64,000 nt of DNA from Escherichia coli (GTDB taxonomy: Bacteria > Pseudomonadota > Gammaproteobacteria > Enterobacterales > Enterobacteriaceae). Shown here piece after piece: positions 31,365 through 36,478 of the stretch. The translations under genes and the position numbers were made by a program. The stretch is taken from the NCBI RefSeq assembly GCF_003334815.1, contig NZ_QOWO01000023.1. One strand, 5' to 3'. Under the pieces are notes generated by a model. That model did not search any database. It worked only from the letters and a program-made list of their open reading frames with translations, and was not told where the DNA came from. Every line of letters starts with the position of its first letter. Position 1 is the stretch's first letter.

Positions 31365-34232
31365 ATGGGCATCAAACAACACAATGGGAATACCAAAGCA
31401 GATCGTCTCGCTGAATTAAAAATCCGTTCGCCCTCAATTCAACTGATAAAATTTGGCGCTATTGGTTTGAATGCAATTATCTTTTCCCCCCTGCTGATAG
31501 CTGCTGATACAGGAAGTCAATATGGCACCAATATTACTATTAATGATGGTGACAGAATTACAGGAGATACCGCCGATCCATCAGGAAACCTCTATGGTGT
31601 AATGACCCCAGCAGGAAACACGCCTGGCAATATCAACCTGGGTAATGATGTCACCGTCAATGTCAACGACGCCTCTGGATATGCAAAAGGAATCATTATT
31701 CAGGGCAAAAACAGCTCCCTGACAGCTAACCGACTCACAGTAGATGTTGTTGGTCAAACCTCTGCCATCGGCATTAACTTAATTGGTGACTATACCCATG
31801 CTGACTTAGGCACAGGCAGCACCATTAAGAGTAACGATGACGGCATCATTATTGGGCATAGCTCAACACTAACAGCCACTCAATTCACCATTGAAAACTC
31901 GAACGGTATAGGCCTAACCATCAATGACTATGGCACCAGTGTCGATCTTGGAAGCGGAAGTAAAATCACGACCGATGGAAGTACAGGTGTTTATATCGGT
32001 GGTCTCAACGGCAATAACGCCAATGGTGCTGCGCGTTTTACGGCTACAGACCTGACAATCGATGTTCAGGGCTACAGCGCCATGGGGATAAACGTACAGA
32101 AAAACTCTGTTGTCGATCTCGGAACAAACAGTACCATTAAAACCAATGGCGATAATGCTCACGGCCTCTGGAGCTTTGGCCAGGTTAGCGCGAATGCACT
32201 CACTGTTGATGTAACTGGAGCCGCGGCCAATGGCGTCGAAGTTCGTGGTGGTACAACCACTATCGGTGCAGATAGCCATATTTCTTCCGCGCAGGGCGGT
32301 GGCCTCGTCACCAGTGGTTCAGACGCGATAATCAATTTTACTGGCACGGCAGCGCAACGAAACAGCATCTTTTCCGGCGGTTCTTATGGTGCCTCGGCCC
32401 AGACGGCAACGGCTGTTGTCAACATGCAAAATACCGATATTACAGTTGATCGTAATGGCAGTCTGGCGCTGGGTTTGTGGGCTCTCAGCGGCGGTAGAAT
32501 AACCGGAGACAGTTTGGCTATCACCGGCGCGGCAGGAGCCAGGGGAATTTATGCCATGACCAACAGCCAGATCGACCTCACGAGCGATCTGGTCATTGAT
32601 ATGAGTACACCCGACCAGATGGCCATCGCAACGCAACATGACGATGGTTATGCCGCCAGCCGCATCAACGCCTCGGGTCGTATGCTTATCAACGGTAGCG
32701 TTCTTTCCAAAGGTGGGCTAATCAATCTGGATATGCACCCTGGGTCGGTTTGGACAGGTTCCTCCCTCAGCGATAATGTCAATGGCGGAAAACTGGACGT
32801 TGCAATGAATAACAGCGTCTGGAACGTAACAAGTAATTCTAATCTCGACACGCTGGCGCTGAGCCATTCAACTGTCGATTTTGCCAGCCACGGGTCAACT
32901 GCCGGCACATTTGCCACATTAAACGTAGAGAACCTGAGCGGTAACAGTACCTTTATTATGCGTGCTGATGTTGTTGGCGAGGGTAATGGCGTTAATAATA
33001 AAGGGGATTTATTGAATATCAGCGGGAGTAGTGCTGGTAATCACGTATTGGCTATCCGCAACCAGGGCAGCGAGGCCACAACGGGAAATGAAGTTCTGAC
33101 AGTGGTAAAAACCACTGACGGCGCGGCCTCGTTCAGCGCGTCTTCTCAGGTTGAGTTGGGGGGATATCTGTACGATGTGCGTAAAAATGGCACTAACTGG
33201 GAGCTTTACGCTTCCGGGACAGTTCCGGAACCGACTCCTAATCCTGAACCCACACCAGCTCCCGCTCAGCCTCCCATAGTCAACCCCGATCCTACGCCTG
33301 AACCCGCTCCCACGCCTAAACCCACCACGACCGCAGATGCTGGCGGCAATTATCTCAATGTCGGTTACTTATTGAACTATGTTGAAAACCGTACGCTGAT
33401 GCAACGGATGGGTGACCTGCGAAATCAGAGTAAAGACGGTAATATCTGGTTGCGCAGTTATGGGGGAAGCCTGGACTCCTTTGCCAGTGGCAAACTGAGC
33501 GGCTTTGACATGGGTTACAGCGGTATCCAGTTTGGTGGGGATAAACGTCTCTCTGATGTAATGCCGTTGTATGTCGGTCTGTATATTGGCTCAACACATG
33601 CATCGCCGGACTATAGCGGAGGCGACGGTACCGCACGTTCAGACTACATGGGAATGTACGCCAGTTACATGGCACAAAACGGTTTTTACAGCGATCTCGT
33701 TATAAAAGCATCGCGCCAGAAAAATAGTTTCCACGTACTGGACAGTCAGAACAACGGCGTTAACGCCAACGGCACTGCGAATGGAATGAGCATCTCCCTG
33801 GAAGCCGGGCAGAGGTTCAACCTGTCCCCTACTGGTTATGGGTTCTATATAGAGCCGCAAACCCAGCTTACATACAGCCACCAGAATGAGATGACTATGA
33901 AGGCGAGTAATGGCCTCAATATACATCTGAATCACTACGAATCGCTGCTGGGGCGTGCCAGCATGATACTGGGGTATGACATCACCGCAGGCAACAGCCA
34001 GCTGAATGTCTATGTGAAGACTGGCGCTATCCGCGAGTTTTCAGGGGATACCGAATATCTGTTGAACAACTCCCGGGAGAAGTACAGTTTCAAAGGTAAT
34101 GGCTGGAATAACGGCGTGGGAGTCAGTGCACAGTATAACAAACAGCACACATTCTATCTCGAAGCGGATTACACGCAGGGTAACCTCTTTGATCAGAAGC
34201 AAGTCAACGGAGGATATCGCTTCAGCTTTTAA
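31365..34232 (+). CDS. ycgV: Autotransporter (type Va) putative adhesin: repetitive passenger, Pro-rich linker, C-terminal beta-barrel
   Basis: 955-aa ORF; passenger with Gly/Thr/Asn-rich beta-helix-like repeats; PEPTPNPEPTPAPAQPPIVNPDPTPEPAPTPKP linker; C-terminus ends GGYRFSF; AGGAG ribosome-binding site. Confidence 0.93.
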   Translation: MGIKQHNGNTKADRLAELKIRSPSIQLIKFGAIGLNAIIFSPLLIAADTGSQYGTNITINDGDRITGDTADPSGNLYGVMTPAGNTPGNINLGNDVTVNVNDASGYAKGIIIQGKNSSLTANRLTVDVVGQTSAIGINLIGDYTHADLGTGSTIKSNDDGIIIGHSSTLTATQFTIENSNGIGLTINDYGTSVDLGSGSKITTDGSTGVYIGGLNGNNANGAARFTATDLTIDVQGYSAMGINVQKNSVVDLGTNSTIKTNGDNAHGLWSFGQVSANALTVDVTGAAANGVEVRGGTTTIGADSHISSAQGGGLVTSGSDAIINFTGTAAQRNSIFSGGSYGASAQTATAVVNMQNTDITVDRNGSLALGLWALSGGRITGDSLAITGAAGARGIYAMTNSQIDLTSDLVIDMSTPDQMAIATQHDDGYAASRINASGRMLINGSVLSKGGLINLDMHPGSVWTGSSLSDNVNGGKLDVAMNNSVWNVTSNSNLDTLALSHSTVDFASHGSTAGTFATLNVENLSGNSTFIMRADVVGEGNGVNNKGDLLNISGSSAGNHVLAIRNQGSEATTGNEVLTVVKTTDGAASFSASSQVELGGYLYDVRKNGTNWELYASGTVPEPTPNPEPTPAPAQPPIVNPDPTPEPAPTPKPTTTADAGGNYLNVGYLLNYVENRTLMQRMGDLRNQSKDGNIWLRSYGGSLDSFASGKLSGFDMGYSGIQFGGDKRLSDVMPLYVGLYIGSTHASPDYSGGDGTARSDYMGMYASYMAQNGFYSDLVIKASRQKNSFHVLDSQNNGVNANGTANGMSISLEAGQRFNLSPTGYGFYIEPQTQLTYSHQNEMTMKASNGLNIHLNHYESLLGRASMILGYDITAGNSQLNVYVKTGAIREFSGDTEYLLNNSREKYSFKGNGWNNGVGVSAQYNKQHTFYLEADYTQGNLFDQKQVNGGYRFSF

Positions 34233-34331
34233 GTGCGGGATAGACAAGCCCTTAAACGATGCTGAAAATTGTTAGCGTGCGCCGGAATGAAATACAGATC
34301 ACTCTGATGTATCAGAAATCGTTTCTGTCTT

Positions 34332-36251
34332 TCATACCCGGCGCTTAAACTGCCCTGCATCAATGCCATGTTGCTTCATTTTCCGCCACAGCGTAGTGCG
34401 GCCGATCCCAAGTAAAGCCGACATTTCCTGAATGCGACCGCCTGTGACCTGGGCTGCGTTAATAATTGCCTCTTTTTCAACTTCCGCAAATGACAGACTG
34501 GTGGAAAGGCGGGTGGCGCTGACATCATCTGTCGCCTGCTCGGTAAACAGATGTTCCGGCAAATCACTGACGCGAATGCGCCCGTTATCACTACTCAGAG
34601 CAAGATTCTCGATGACGCTGTAAAGTTCAAAATCGTTGCCTGGCCATGCACAAGAAACCAGGCGAGCGAGGGCATCGTCATCAATTTTCAGCCGCGTAGA
34701 GAAGCGTTTTTCAAGACTGCGTAATTTGTTATTCACCAGCGCCGGAATGCTGCCACGCCGCATACGCAGAGGCGGGATGGTAATTTCAAATGCATGCAGC
34801 GCGTAATACAGCTGGCGACTAAAACGATTTTGTTCCACCAGCATTGCGAGGTCCGCGGTCGTTGTTGCAATCACTTTGACATCAATTGGTATTAAACGCC
34901 GCGCATCCAGTCGCGTGATAACCCCCTGCTTGATAACCTGAAGCAAAGCAGACTGTAACTCCACCGCCAGATATTCAATCTTTTCAAGAAACAGCGTGCC
35001 GCCGTGTGCCAGTTCCAGCCGACTCAGACGGCCATTTTCATTGTCCGTGCGATCGCCACCAATAAATTCTTCCGCCAGCGCAGCATCACCATATAACTCA
35101 CAATTGACGGCGATATAAGGACCTGCAGCACGCTCGCTTTCATTATGAATTGCCTGACTTAGCAGTGCCTTGCCCACGCCCTCTTCTCCACAAAGCAGGA
35201 CAGGAAAGCTACTGCGCGCCGCCTGGCGACCAAAATGAATCAAGCGGCGGGTTTGCGGATCGTCCTGTGGCATATGAGCGAAGGTATGGCTGACTTTTCC
35301 TAATTGACTGGTCATCAACTGCCGCATCTGTTCCACAGGATGGAGCAACAAAATAAAGCTGGTTCCCTGCGTTTCTATTATCGGTTTAAGGGTTATCACC
35401 GCATCAATAAACTGGTGCTGGCTTTCAAAGGTTGCTTCTACGTGTTTGAGCGGATGTGCCTGTTTTATTGCTTGTTGCAATACGGCGGGTAACGTTAAGA
35501 GTTCAGTGATTGCCCGTCCCTGACTTGCCGTCGCGTCAAGGCGCAAGACCCGCGCCGCCTGGGCATTAATAAATTGCAAATTACCCTGCTCGTCCCAGCT
35601 AATCACGCCATCATCCATACTTTCTAACAGGGCATTAAGTTGATTTAAATGACGGTTAGTTTCAGCGAGCAAACTGTCCGTCAGCAGTAAATTTCCGACC
35701 TCGCGGGCGATTGCCAACGTCAACGGCAAATCAGCTGCGGTAGTTTGCTCAACCGGACACGCCAGCGCTATTGTTCCCGTCAATCGGCCCTTGCTGTCAA
35801 ACAACGGCGTTGCACAAAAGGCCCAGTTCCAGAGTACCTGTTTGAAATGTTGATCGGCCATCGTTTTCACGGCCTGACCAGAGATAGCCGCTAACGATAG
35901 CGCACAAGTACCAATAATTCCCTCGGCGCAATACGTGCCGTCATTGAATCCCAGTGCACTTAGCTGCTGCAAGGTTTGCGGATCGCCATTACGGCTGAGA
36001 ATGCAGGCGGTTTCATCGAGGATAAACAGCGCACACTCTCGCGGTGCCATATATTCCCAGGCATCTTCCAGCGCAGCCTGCCCGAGCGTCAGCATCGCTT
36101 TCTTACGCCGATAAATAGAAGCAAATGTCACGCCCTGGGCCTGATGTGGTACGTTCCATGTCTCCCGTTTCATCAGCTTATTGCATCGCTCCCAGGAGGT
36201 TGCAATTAAGGGAGATATGCCCCGACCATCGTTGTTAAAAGCGCCACTCAT
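34332..36251 (-). CDS. dhaR: Transcriptional activator of the dihydroxyacetone kinase operon (GAF-PAS-AAA+ enhancer-binding-type protein)
   Basis: ATG at 36251 with AGGGA ribosome-binding site gives the 639-aa product; AAA+ motifs and C-terminal Fis-type helix-turn-helix; divergent from dhaK. Confidence 0.92.
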   Translation of the reverse strand: MSGAFNNDGRGISPLIATSWERCNKLMKRETWNVPHQAQGVTFASIYRRKKAMLTLGQAALEDAWEYMAPRECALFILDETACILSRNGDPQTLQQLSALGFNDGTYCAEGIIGTCALSLAAISGQAVKTMADQHFKQVLWNWAFCATPLFDSKGRLTGTIALACPVEQTTAADLPLTLAIAREVGNLLLTDSLLAETNRHLNQLNALLESMDDGVISWDEQGNLQFINAQAARVLRLDATASQGRAITELLTLPAVLQQAIKQAHPLKHVEATFESQHQFIDAVITLKPIIETQGTSFILLLHPVEQMRQLMTSQLGKVSHTFAHMPQDDPQTRRLIHFGRQAARSSFPVLLCGEEGVGKALLSQAIHNESERAAGPYIAVNCELYGDAALAEEFIGGDRTDNENGRLSRLELAHGGTLFLEKIEYLAVELQSALLQVIKQGVITRLDARRLIPIDVKVIATTTADLAMLVEQNRFSRQLYYALHAFEITIPPLRMRRGSIPALVNNKLRSLEKRFSTRLKIDDDALARLVSCAWPGNDFELYSVIENLALSSDNGRIRVSDLPEHLFTEQATDDVSATRLSTSLSFAEVEKEAIINAAQVTGGRIQEMSALLGIGRTTLWRKMKQHGIDAGQFKRRV

Positions 36252-36478
36252 ATCCCGCATCCCTTATGACAAAAGGTGTTCCGGCTCGCAATTTTAAGTA
36301 TTAATACACGTAAAAGTTTCAATATGGAACATTCATTAAAGCATATGTTTCACTATGAAACATAATTTGGGCTAATTTTCTTTTCCCTTGCCTGATGCAC
36401 AATGGATTCATCGGCAGTCAGTGGTCGCCGTGTCGTTGAACATCATCCATGCCCTACCGTAATTGCTGGAGCAAAATA

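Follow-up and report, generated by a model that had tools for sequence, protein, structure and literature searches.

The window analysed here is a stretch of 64,000 nucleotides from an Escherichia coli contig (NZ_QOWO01000023.1), and all positions below are positions in the window. On its plus strand, with ychF and dhaR as neighbours, lies an open reading frame of 955 codons plus a stop (31365..34232), beginning with ATG and encoding an intact type Va autotransporter. A sequence-only reading had called an intact frame of 955 codons in this place and named it ycgV. It was right on both counts: frame, strand and start codon agree exactly, and the locus is 100% identical to that of K-12 MG1655/ER2796, where it is annotated as b1202 ycgV, "putative autotransporter adhesin YcgV".

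A Shine-Dalgarno sequence, AGGAG (31356..31360, plus strand), stands 4 nt 5' of the ATG and is identical across 7 aligned strains. Passenger and translocator are held in the single 955-aa frame, without a partner TpsB or usher gene. The protein contains no Cys and ends in YRFSF, with a terminal Phe. I hold with high confidence that the frame is ycgV, a classical type Va autotransporter that is normally silenced and that has the export and adhesin role proposed below. The gene is already catalogued in K-12, and what this report adds is descriptive detail only: an account of the repeat units, of polymorphism in the linker and of the range of lesions, together with an AlphaFold2 model.

The ychF-ycgV spacer

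The same reading had noticed an AT-rich region of 768 bp upstream of the gene and connected it with H-NS. The spacer between ychF and ycgV (30597..31364), which is the regulatory region of ycgV, has a GC content of 33.7%, compared with 50.5% for the window. No 768-bp stretch in the 64 kb is lower, and the 0.08% of 768-bp frames that are equally low all overlap the spacer. The leader-coding part of ycgV has 41.8% GC. Binding of H-NS is a published result: Table 1 of PMC3661553 gives flag 'A' to the ycgV/ychF promoter island, meaning that it was H-NS-bound in all the ChIP-chip studies compared there (Grainger, Kahramanoglou, Oshima). Converted from U00096.2 coordinates (1255333+301), the island maps to about 30907-31207.

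Nearer the gene lies a 126-bp EMSA probe (31239-31364, with the probe primer mapping at 31239). It represents the proximal region bound in an APEC strain by YbdO, which represses ycgV there, as judged by EMSA and RT-qPCR (PMC11681634). In laboratory K-12 ycgV is essentially silent, and I propose that this is because H-NS occupies the AT-rich spacer.

The upstream limit of the control region would be a hairpin, AAAATCCACGCAATTGCGTGGATTTT, followed by a run of T (30653..30678). Its palindromic stem and T run point to an intrinsic terminator of ychF on the plus strand; the scan reported it on the minus strand. An Rfam scan of 30400-34500 gave only sub-threshold Leu_leader matches on this same hairpin, which I judge to be chance. 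Two other scans were uninformative: one with promoter and terminator consensus sequences returned fewer matches than shuffled sequence did, and one of the spacer with a 10-bp H-NS consensus returned 2 weak matches.

Alignment places the site of a 75-bp indel, flanked by CTGGC microhomology, at 30875..30880. K-12, BL21 and their relatives are without the segment, and 1,848 of 5,426 genomes have it (about 45% of those positive for ycgV). It is single-copy in each genome, which rules out a mobile miniature element. As a lesser possibility, the indel, inside the H-NS-bound promoter island, may alter how tightly ycgV is silenced. A minus-strand frame across this region (30841-31023) looks as if it might encode a small transmembrane protein. 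This is unlikely, since most of the differences seen between 7 strains alter an amino acid and the C-terminal end changes with the 75-bp indel.

Predicted architecture and export of YcgV

A beta-helical passenger, a Pro-rich linker and a C-terminal barrel of type Va, as the sequence-only reading described the protein, find support in Pfam, NCBIfam, sequence matches in the PDB, an AlphaFold2 model (mean pLDDT 85.5) and Foldseek comparison, the last two supplying the evidence on fold.

The protein begins with a leader of 47 aa (residues 1-47; 31365..31505, plus strand). Its n-region, about 28 aa long, is basic; the h-region reads FGAIGLNAIIFSPLLIA, and cleavage probably falls between AA and DTGSQ. 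An n-region of 28 aa is atypical. The best 12-residue Kyte-Doolittle window in the h-region reaches 2.12, residues 1-44 have pLDDT below 50 in the model, and SignalP 6 gives the native leader a P of only 0.47 (PMC13101318). The h-region and the cleavage junction are conserved among homologues of five genera; leader length, h-region and the junction between AA and D(I/L)GSQ are kept in those of Citrobacter, Morganella, Pragia and Leminorella. The case for a putative Sec signal peptide consists of this conservation and the published phenotype on induction.

The passenger (residues 48-493; 31506..32843, plus strand) is predicted to be a beta-helix, with three short strands in each rung of 22-31 aa and pLDDT mostly above 90. 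Foldseek matches it to pertactin (1dab, E = 2.8e-12). The best fold matches to the passenger are to pertactin, Hap and Hbp; in AIDA-I only the transport unit matches. The C-terminal end of the helix is capped by a pertactin-type autochaperone (residues 494-615; 32844..33209, plus strand; PF03212, E = 1.4e-37). PDB sequence matches to Vag8 and pertactin span residues 478-616, and PMC5767081 lists a YcgV autochaperone cluster.

The Pro-rich linker (residues 616-656; 33210..33332, plus strand) is 36% Pro and 18% Thr and is predicted to be disordered, with pLDDT below 50 at residues 620-648. The string PEPTPNPEPTPAPAQPPIVNPDPTPEPAPTPKP, by which the linker had been recognized, is found at residues 621-653 (33225-33323). 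Next comes an alpha-helix (residues 655-684; 33327..33416, plus strand), modeled as H655-661 and H663-684, with the first barrel strand at 693. In autotransporters, the helix preceding the barrel plugs the pore. Alignments to the structures of EspP before cleavage and of the BrkA beta-domain begin at YcgV residues 666-678.

The outer-membrane barrel translocator itself (residues 693-955; 33441..34229, plus strand) ends with YRFSF. It is recognized by PF03797 (residues 694-935, E = 1.6e-37), by TIGR01414 (residues 513-955, E = 2e-107, 359.9 bits where the cut-off is 16) and by Foldseek, which superimposes it on the BrkA beta-domain 3qq2 (TM 0.89-0.90, rmsd 2.6 A) and on EspP (TM 0.77-0.85). In the model the barrel spans 693-954, and DSSP divides it into 13 long strand segments, not a clean 12. 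A PDB sequence search (E <= 1e-3) found Vag8 (E = 5.7e-25), BrkA, EspP, pertactin and Hbp, with similarity confined to residues 478-955.

From this architecture and the established type Va pathway, a route of export may be sketched. The leader would carry YcgV through Sec. BAM would insert the C-terminal barrel into the outer membrane with helix 655-684 in its pore, and the passenger would be threaded outward, C-terminus leading. The autochaperone would fold first and template the stacking of rungs into a three-stranded beta-helix. The disordered linker, by the same analogy, would stay behind as an extended stalk joining the barrel to the helix.

Repeats, length variation and loss of the gene

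The passenger had been described as rich in Gly, Thr, Asn and Asp and as built of degenerate repeats. Its composition over residues 48-493 fits (G 14.8, T 11.0, S 10.3, N 9.6, A 9.2, I 8.3 and D 7.6%), with Ser and Ala abundant as well. The repeats are real, as judged by gapped self-alignment of tiles and by alignment of the units. There are about 5-6 of these, each of 49-60 aa and two rungs, over residues ~64-386 (31554-32522); they are 20-56% identical as protein, with an approximate consensus of TA..LT.DV.G...A.G...T..VDL.GT.STI..NG...G.II. The test that carries the claim used 50-aa tiles: the mean best score was 47.9, against 36.1 +/- 1.7 in 60 shuffles, and the top tiles reached 63-82, where the shuffles went no higher than 65. 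It replaced an ungapped comparison of 20-aa diagonals, where the best score in the passenger (47; shuffle mean 35.9 +/- 4.0, maximum 49) is not significant alone. In the DNA of the passenger, TRF (minimum score 30) and a repeat finder detected only matches of chance size, 17-28 nt. Repetition above chance is visible at the protein level only. The repeats are ancient, diverged two-rung units; they are without identity in the DNA and therefore do not drive changes in copy number.

It had been supposed that so repetitive a passenger would be the seat of in-frame length variation. Internal repetition and variation in length are both present, so the reading as a whole is not refuted; the variation sits in the Pro linker, not in the passenger. 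The survey consists of 57 full-length rows from complete genomes sampled at even spacing, of which 35 span 2868 bp, 16 span 2886 bp and 6 are disrupted alleles; none is a passenger length variant. The two in-frame classes, the only ones in the sample, differ by one 18-bp (6-aa) unit, and in the alleles aligned as protein and DNA the difference maps to a tandem repeat in the linker (33285..33323, plus strand), where TRF finds 2.2 copies of PDPTP-x in K-12; alleles of 961 aa carry a further copy. Set against the long allele, short alleles of the K-12 type and of the RIVM type lack 18 bp in different registers, the unit having been lost at least 2 times independently within E. coli. It is the sole common in-frame length polymorphism of ycgV. 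In-frame deletions in the passenger occur in singleton protein clusters only, and none of 5,426 complete genomes has the junction of the one deletion that keeps to the repeat register (193-249). Contingency-type variation in repeat number in the passenger is rejected: there are no DNA repeats, the units are diverged and no variant occurs in the 57 rows.

The picture is the same beyond the species. Among 50 homologues it is the linker that varies most in length of all the modules, from 11 to 97 aa (sd 16.8); the other mature modules have sd of 0.8-7.3, and the passenger is of nearly constant length. Slippage of the 18-bp unit would alter the linker within E. coli, and free drift would alter it between genera. 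These observations, the gain or loss of the 18-bp unit at least twice, and the resemblance of PDPTP-x to the Pro repeats of pertactin, bring up a tentative idea, possible though by no means probable: that the Pro-rich linker, and not the repeat-built passenger, is the evolvable module of the family, its length serving as a tunable stalk that determines the reach of the beta-helix past LPS or capsule, or the linker being an epitope exposed to immunity. In Bordetella, prn is polymorphic for copy-number-variable Pro-rich repeats near the C-terminus of the passenger, to which the YcgV linker may be likened. One practical consequence is that strain typing by ycgV length is better aimed at the linker repeat (33285-33323), since divergence among the repeats of the passenger is too great for them to vary in copy number. 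For the engineering of surface display, the points to note are a leader that is conserved yet atypically long and a linker that tolerates 11-97 residues across the family.

A more common kind of variation is loss. A match of any sort to the ycgV CDS is present in 4,119 of 5,426 complete genomes, leaving about 24% without the gene, and where the gene is found it may carry IS1 at codon ~28, IS1-mediated deletions, an IS3 insertion or frameshifts; some O157:H7 strains have a deletion from ycgV nt 1631 into dhaR. The leader-coding region contains a direct duplicate of 10 bp, CTGCTGATAG (1.9 copies by TRF; 31491..31509, plus strand), and the loss of one copy shifts the frame. One-copy alleles exist in MEI2B and O157:H7 FRIK2455, and their junction is found in 18 of 5,426 genomes, in several backgrounds. 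An out-of-frame allele this scarce is a recurrent but rare lesion, and a phase-variation switch at the duplicate is rejected. A common frameshift in the barrel, represented by protein cluster P0006 (867 aa), was also considered and dropped: the cluster size of 3,116 counts all members at 90% identity and the exact protein is on 2 contigs only, so no frequency is drawn from it. Natural isolates have often lost ycgV or carry a broken copy; the gene is dispensable, and presence/absence together with disruption alleles is the dominant form of its variation.

Where the gene is intact, it appears to be kept so. Comparison with three divergent alleles gives dN/dS of 0.17-0.23, indicating continuing purifying selection on intact alleles, and pairwise dN/dS in the linker is 0.13-0.38, below 1. 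Positive selection has been reported on ycgV, and also on yfaL (PMC9110714).

Function and relation to known autotransporters

The label of adhesin, given in the sequence-only reading, rests on published induction experiments: adhesion and biofilm formation on induction of ycgV are attributed to Roux et al. 2005 by PMC3796261 and PMC9289746, the form in which that study is cited here. Once ycgV is expressed, the exposed beta-helix would act, as this literature has it, as a non-fimbrial adhesin and promoter of biofilm. Since a large minority of genomes have no ycgV or a disrupted one, any role must be conditional. The importance of the gene is limited, lying in the published adhesion and biofilm phenotype, in regulation by H-NS and YbdO, and in its recent use as a scaffold, the YcgV barrel having been found to support surface display (PMC13101318).

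An adhesin for surfaces or host ligands is not the only protein that such results would fit. YcgV might instead be self-associating, like Ag43, AIDA-I and TibA, its beta-helix binding head to tail between cells and causing autoaggregation. The biofilm phenotype would be expected from this, as would a passenger that is modeled as beta-helix over its full length, and homophilic binding and autoaggregation of YcgV have been suggested, as putative (PMC9289746). I consider it rather improbable. Pfam gave Pertactin and Autotransporter only and no AIDA-type repeat family, no passenger of Ag43, TibA or AIDA was among the PDB sequence matches (E <= 1e-3), and the best folds were those of other passengers, with AIDA-I entering through its transport unit. 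Those matches turn attention to pertactin, BrkA and Vag8, and to a function in host interaction or complement evasion, in gut or bloodstream, with the Pro region as an immunodominant and drifting epitope like region 2 of pertactin. The PQP repeat is polymorphic among Bordetella prn alleles, which the polymorphic Pro-X repeat of the YcgV linker recalls. Vag8, BrkA and pertactin are the closest solved relatives by sequence, homologues go by the names 'P.93' or 'pertactin family autotransporter' at their sources, positive selection has been reported as noted, and ycgV has been treated as a virulence gene of APEC (PMC11681634). Yet the similarity, confined to autochaperone and barrel, is to modules of secretion and not to determinants of function; YcgV has no RGD motif, and linker dN/dS stays below 1. 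I regard this function as unlikely.

It may also be asked whether K-12 ycgV does anything at all. A silent relic, decaying toward a pseudogene, could look intact and never be productively expressed or exported, and the silencing of the gene with its H-NS-bound upstream region, the weak prediction of a signal peptide, the absence of the CDS from so many genomes and the many independent lesions all agree with this. Low dN/dS among intact alleles does not, nor does the conservation of leader, autochaperone and barrel across genera. There is further the adhesion on induction relayed by later papers, and ycgV mutations arose when populations with fim deleted were put under selection for adhesion (bioRxiv 10.1101/2021.08.03.454899). 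A relic is very unlikely, and the view preferred remains that of a normally silenced adhesin.

How does YcgV compare with other autotransporters? With pertactin P.69, BrkA and Vag8 of Bordetella it shares a pertactin/autochaperone domain, a homologous barrel and a three-stranded beta-helix as passenger. It differs from them in the absence of RGD, in its N-terminal 450 residues, which are without significant sequence similarity, and in belonging to a different phylogenetic group (PMC9289746); it is not known to bind integrins or to evade complement. Ag43/Flu, AIDA-I and TibA are, like YcgV, type Va proteins with beta-helical passengers that promote biofilm, and they fall in the same Group 4 (PMC9289746). 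YcgV is set apart from these by the lack of a detected AIDA-type repeat family and of a PDB match to the passengers of Ag43 or TibA, and it is not known to undergo Dam/OxyR-type phase variation or glycosylation of the passenger. Similarity to MisL of Salmonella and to the BafA family, by NCBIfam, is weak and lies in the C-terminus of the passenger and the barrel; scores of 49.8 against a curated cut-off of 1297 and 81.6 against 700 fall too far short for membership in either.

The nearest parallels in circumstance are YfaL (EhaC) and YpjA (EhaD), chromosomal and laboratory-silent like YcgV, and credited, in what is cited of the same study, with adhesion and biofilm when forced. Their passengers are of other lengths (1250 and 1526 aa), and the long non-ESPR leader and short polymorphic Pro stalk are YcgV's. 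The protein of the window is in the end the YcgV of E. coli K-12 (Roux, Beloin & Ghigo 2005 and later reviews), the same in sequence, annotation, reported biofilm and adhesion phenotype and silent state, with nothing to tell the two apart.

The gene and the seat of its length variation

A single long ORF on the plus strand, 31365..34232, starts with ATG, is preceded by a Shine-Dalgarno AGGAG 4 nt 5' of that codon, and encodes 955 amino acids. It is flanked by ychF (29505..30596, plus strand) and the convergent dhaR (34332..36260, minus strand). The DNA from 30597 to 34332 is 100% identical to that of E. coli K-12 MG1655 and ER2796, and NC_000913.3 annotates the ORF as b1202 ycgV, "putative autotransporter adhesin YcgV". 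The gene has been described before, and ORF list, identity and annotation all agree with the sequence-only reading of it as intact. The Pro-rich string quoted in that reading lies at residues 621-653.

The same reading held that the passenger (residues 48-493) is made of degenerate repeats and that repeat-rich passengers are prone to in-frame length variation between strains. The first part is right at the level of protein. Repeat searches of the passenger DNA found no tandem or dispersed repeat of note, and an ungapped window self-comparison of the protein was not significant. Gapped self-alignment in 50-aa tiles gave a mean best score of 47.9 vs 36.1 +/- 1.7 for shuffles, and tiles starting at residues 123-273 scored 51-82 (shuffle 95th percentile 47, maximum 65). 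Repeat units align at 64-118, 119-168, 169-225, 226-274, 275-326 and 327-386, with pairwise identities of 20-56% and an approximate consensus of TA..LT.DV.G...A.G...T..VDL.GT.STI..NG...G.II; repetition is undetectable in residues 387-615.

The polymorphism seen in this analysis places the variation elsewhere. The CDS has a match in 4,119 of 5,426 complete E. coli genomes, with at least 80% of it covered in 3,936. Sixty evenly spaced rows were sampled from these matches, and the full query was covered in 57: 35 span 2868 bp (the 955-aa allele), 16 span 2886 bp (a 961-aa allele), three span 3644-3645 bp (IS1 insertion), and one each spans 4093 bp (IS3 insertion), 2867 bp (not a multiple of three) and 2876 bp (a frameshift, in O157:H7 FRIK2455). 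The 18 bp by which the two common alleles differ are one PDPTP-x unit of a tandem repeat in the Pro linker, at 33285-33323. Aligned as DNA with the long allele, which has three units, the K-12-type and RIVM-type 955-aa alleles each lack 18 bp in a register of their own, a pattern that implies two or more independent slippage events. The same module varies over greater distances. In 50 aligned homologues (identity 45-99%; Citrobacter, Morganella, Pragia, Leminorella, Limnobaculum, Pantoea and others), linker length ranges from 11 to 97 aa with a standard deviation of 16.8; the repeat zone has a standard deviation of 7.3, the remaining passenger 1.9, the autochaperone 2.2 and helix plus barrel 0.8.

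In-frame passenger deletions in E. coli, of 57, 78, 76 and 130 aa, occur only as singleton protein clusters (P0002/P0007, P0004, P0005 and P0008). Only the deletion of residues 193-249 removes exactly one repeat unit: its 57 aa are in repeat register and are flanked by a 13/14-nt match, GTCGATCTyGGAA. Not one of the 5,426 complete genomes contains its junction. (The source of P0002 is a short-read Logan assembly, that of P0007 a 4.8-Mb NCBI contig.) The deletions 431-506 and 367-496 are flanked by microhomologies of 7-9 nt, and no clear flanking microhomology was found for 105-182. Since repetition and length variation both exist, the earlier finding is not refuted, but its location of the variation in the passenger repeats does not hold. 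The one correction it needs is that the module which varies in length is the Pro linker rather than the passenger with its repeats.

Leader, lesions and selection

The YcgV leader is atypical, 47 aa long with a basic n-region of 28 aa, and a 2026 surface-display paper gives it a SignalP 6 probability of 0.47 (PMC13101318). Its length, its h-region and its AA|D(I/L)GSQ junction are kept across genera in the homologue comparison, and for that reason I take it to be, in all likelihood, a true signal peptide of unusual length.

The leader-coding part of the gene contains a 10-bp direct duplicate, CTGCTGATAG x1.9, at 31491-31509. Where only one copy remains, the reading frame is shifted; such alleles are present in 18 of the 5,426 complete genomes, spread over unrelated backgrounds (an O157:H7 sublineage, and isolates from soil, dog, pig and human). 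The duplicate is a recurrent slippage hotspot. As an on/off switch it was rejected, the one-copy allele being too rare.

Other lesions are also found. Besides frameshift alleles, there is an IS1 insertion at codon ~28, and IS1-mediated deletions take out ycgV along with either parts of dhaR or all of the dha region; in some O157:H7 strains a deletion runs from nt 1631 of ycgV into dhaR. The stretch that follows ychF varies among the compared genome loci (L014, L009, L015, L008), and in at least one ycgV-negative genome (L014, NZ_CP124483.1, 4704-8700) an island led by a tyrosine integrase and carrying IS elements adjoins ychF. Between intact alleles dN/dS is 0.17-0.23, a value that points to purifying selection on them; positive selection has been reported for the gene (PMC9110714).

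The upstream spacer

The 768-bp spacer between ychF and ycgV (30597-31364) was said to be AT-rich, and so it is: its GC content is 33.7% vs 50.5% for the window, making it the most AT-rich 768-bp frame of the 64 kb. Silencing of the gene is taken from the literature. The spacer belongs to a set of 78 "promoter islands" and is flagged both as H-NS-bound in each of the three compared ChIP-chip datasets and as associated with a predicted foreign gene (PMC3661553); converted to window coordinates the island lies at ~30907-31207, the GC minimum. In an APEC strain YbdO represses ycgV ~3-4-fold and shifts a 126-bp probe (PMC11681634) that maps to 31239-31364.

Differences in locus span arise mainly from a 75-bp indel at 30875/30876 (site 30875-30880), flanked by CTGGC microhomology and, by its position, inside the H-NS-bound spacer. 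The 75-bp segment is single-copy, is present in 1,848 of the 5,426 genomes (~581-655 in the compared locus L001), and is lacking in K-12, BL21 and their relatives.

A 60-aa ORF on the minus strand of the spacer, 30841-31023, has a strongly hydrophobic, TM-like stretch, IFIFGQWVFWPIVVIVLLVIIFILP, and on some metagenome contigs it has been called as a gene of 59-67 aa. It is probably not a gene: across seven strains the differences, by reading, are mostly amino-acid-changing, and the C-terminus shifts with the 75-bp indel. Matches to the Rfam Leu_leader, at 31-33 bits below the gathering score of 50, overlap the terminator hairpin of ychF on either strand, at 30650-30769 and 30611-30681; they are almost certainly due to chance, hairpin and T run being to blame. 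Within the barrel-coding part of ycgV, on the sense (plus) strand at 33586-33602, is the motif TTGGCTCAACACATGCA, listed as the weak intragenic sigma-54 ChIP-seq site IS15 (PMC4591121); convergent dhaR is ~750 bp away.

Architecture, proposed secretion route and relatives

The architecture found in this analysis is that of an autotransporter. Pfam places PF03212 (Pertactin, the autochaperone) at 494-615 and PF03797 (Autotransporter beta-domain) at 694-935, each with E ~1e-37, and NCBIfam TIGR01414 spans 513-955 (E = 2e-107); scores against the NCBIfam MisL and BafA models fall well under their cut-offs. The passenger is rich in G (14.8%), T (11.0%), S (10.3%), N (9.6%), A (9.2%) and D (7.6%), the full sequence has neither Cys nor RGD motif, and the protein ends in YRFSF. 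The fold is that predicted by AlphaFold2 from the alignment of 50 homologues (mean pLDDT 85.5, pTM 0.70). In the model residues 1-44 are disordered; 50-616 are all-beta, with pLDDT mostly >90, in rungs of 22-31 aa with three short strands each, one repeat unit corresponding to two rungs; 620-648, in the Pro linker, are disordered; a helix occupies 655-684 and the barrel 693-954.

Taking the established type Va pathway as a guide, I propose that Sec would export YcgV by way of its long leader, that BAM would insert the barrel with helix 655-684 sitting in the pore, and that the passenger would be secreted C-to-N as a hairpin, the autochaperone nucleating the stacking of the beta-helix. The disordered Pro linker may then remain as an extracellular stalk.

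The adhesion phenotype comes from the literature: forced expression leads to adhesion and biofilm, according to Roux et al. 2005 as cited by reviews (PMC3796261), and ycgV mutations emerged in a fim-deleted background selected for adhesion (bioRxiv 10.1101/2021.08.03.454899). YcgV is placed in Group 4 with self-associating autotransporters, and no structure or mechanism has been published for it (PMC9289746). By sequence its nearest solved relatives in the PDB are Vag8, BrkA, EspP, pertactin and Hbp, with matches that begin only at residue ~478. Foldseek, run against the PDB, matches the predicted passenger to pertactin P.69 (E = 2.8e-12), Hap and Hbp, and the predicted barrel to the BrkA beta-domain (TM 0.89-0.90, rmsd 2.6 A), with further matches to EspP, Hbp, NalP and AIDA-I.
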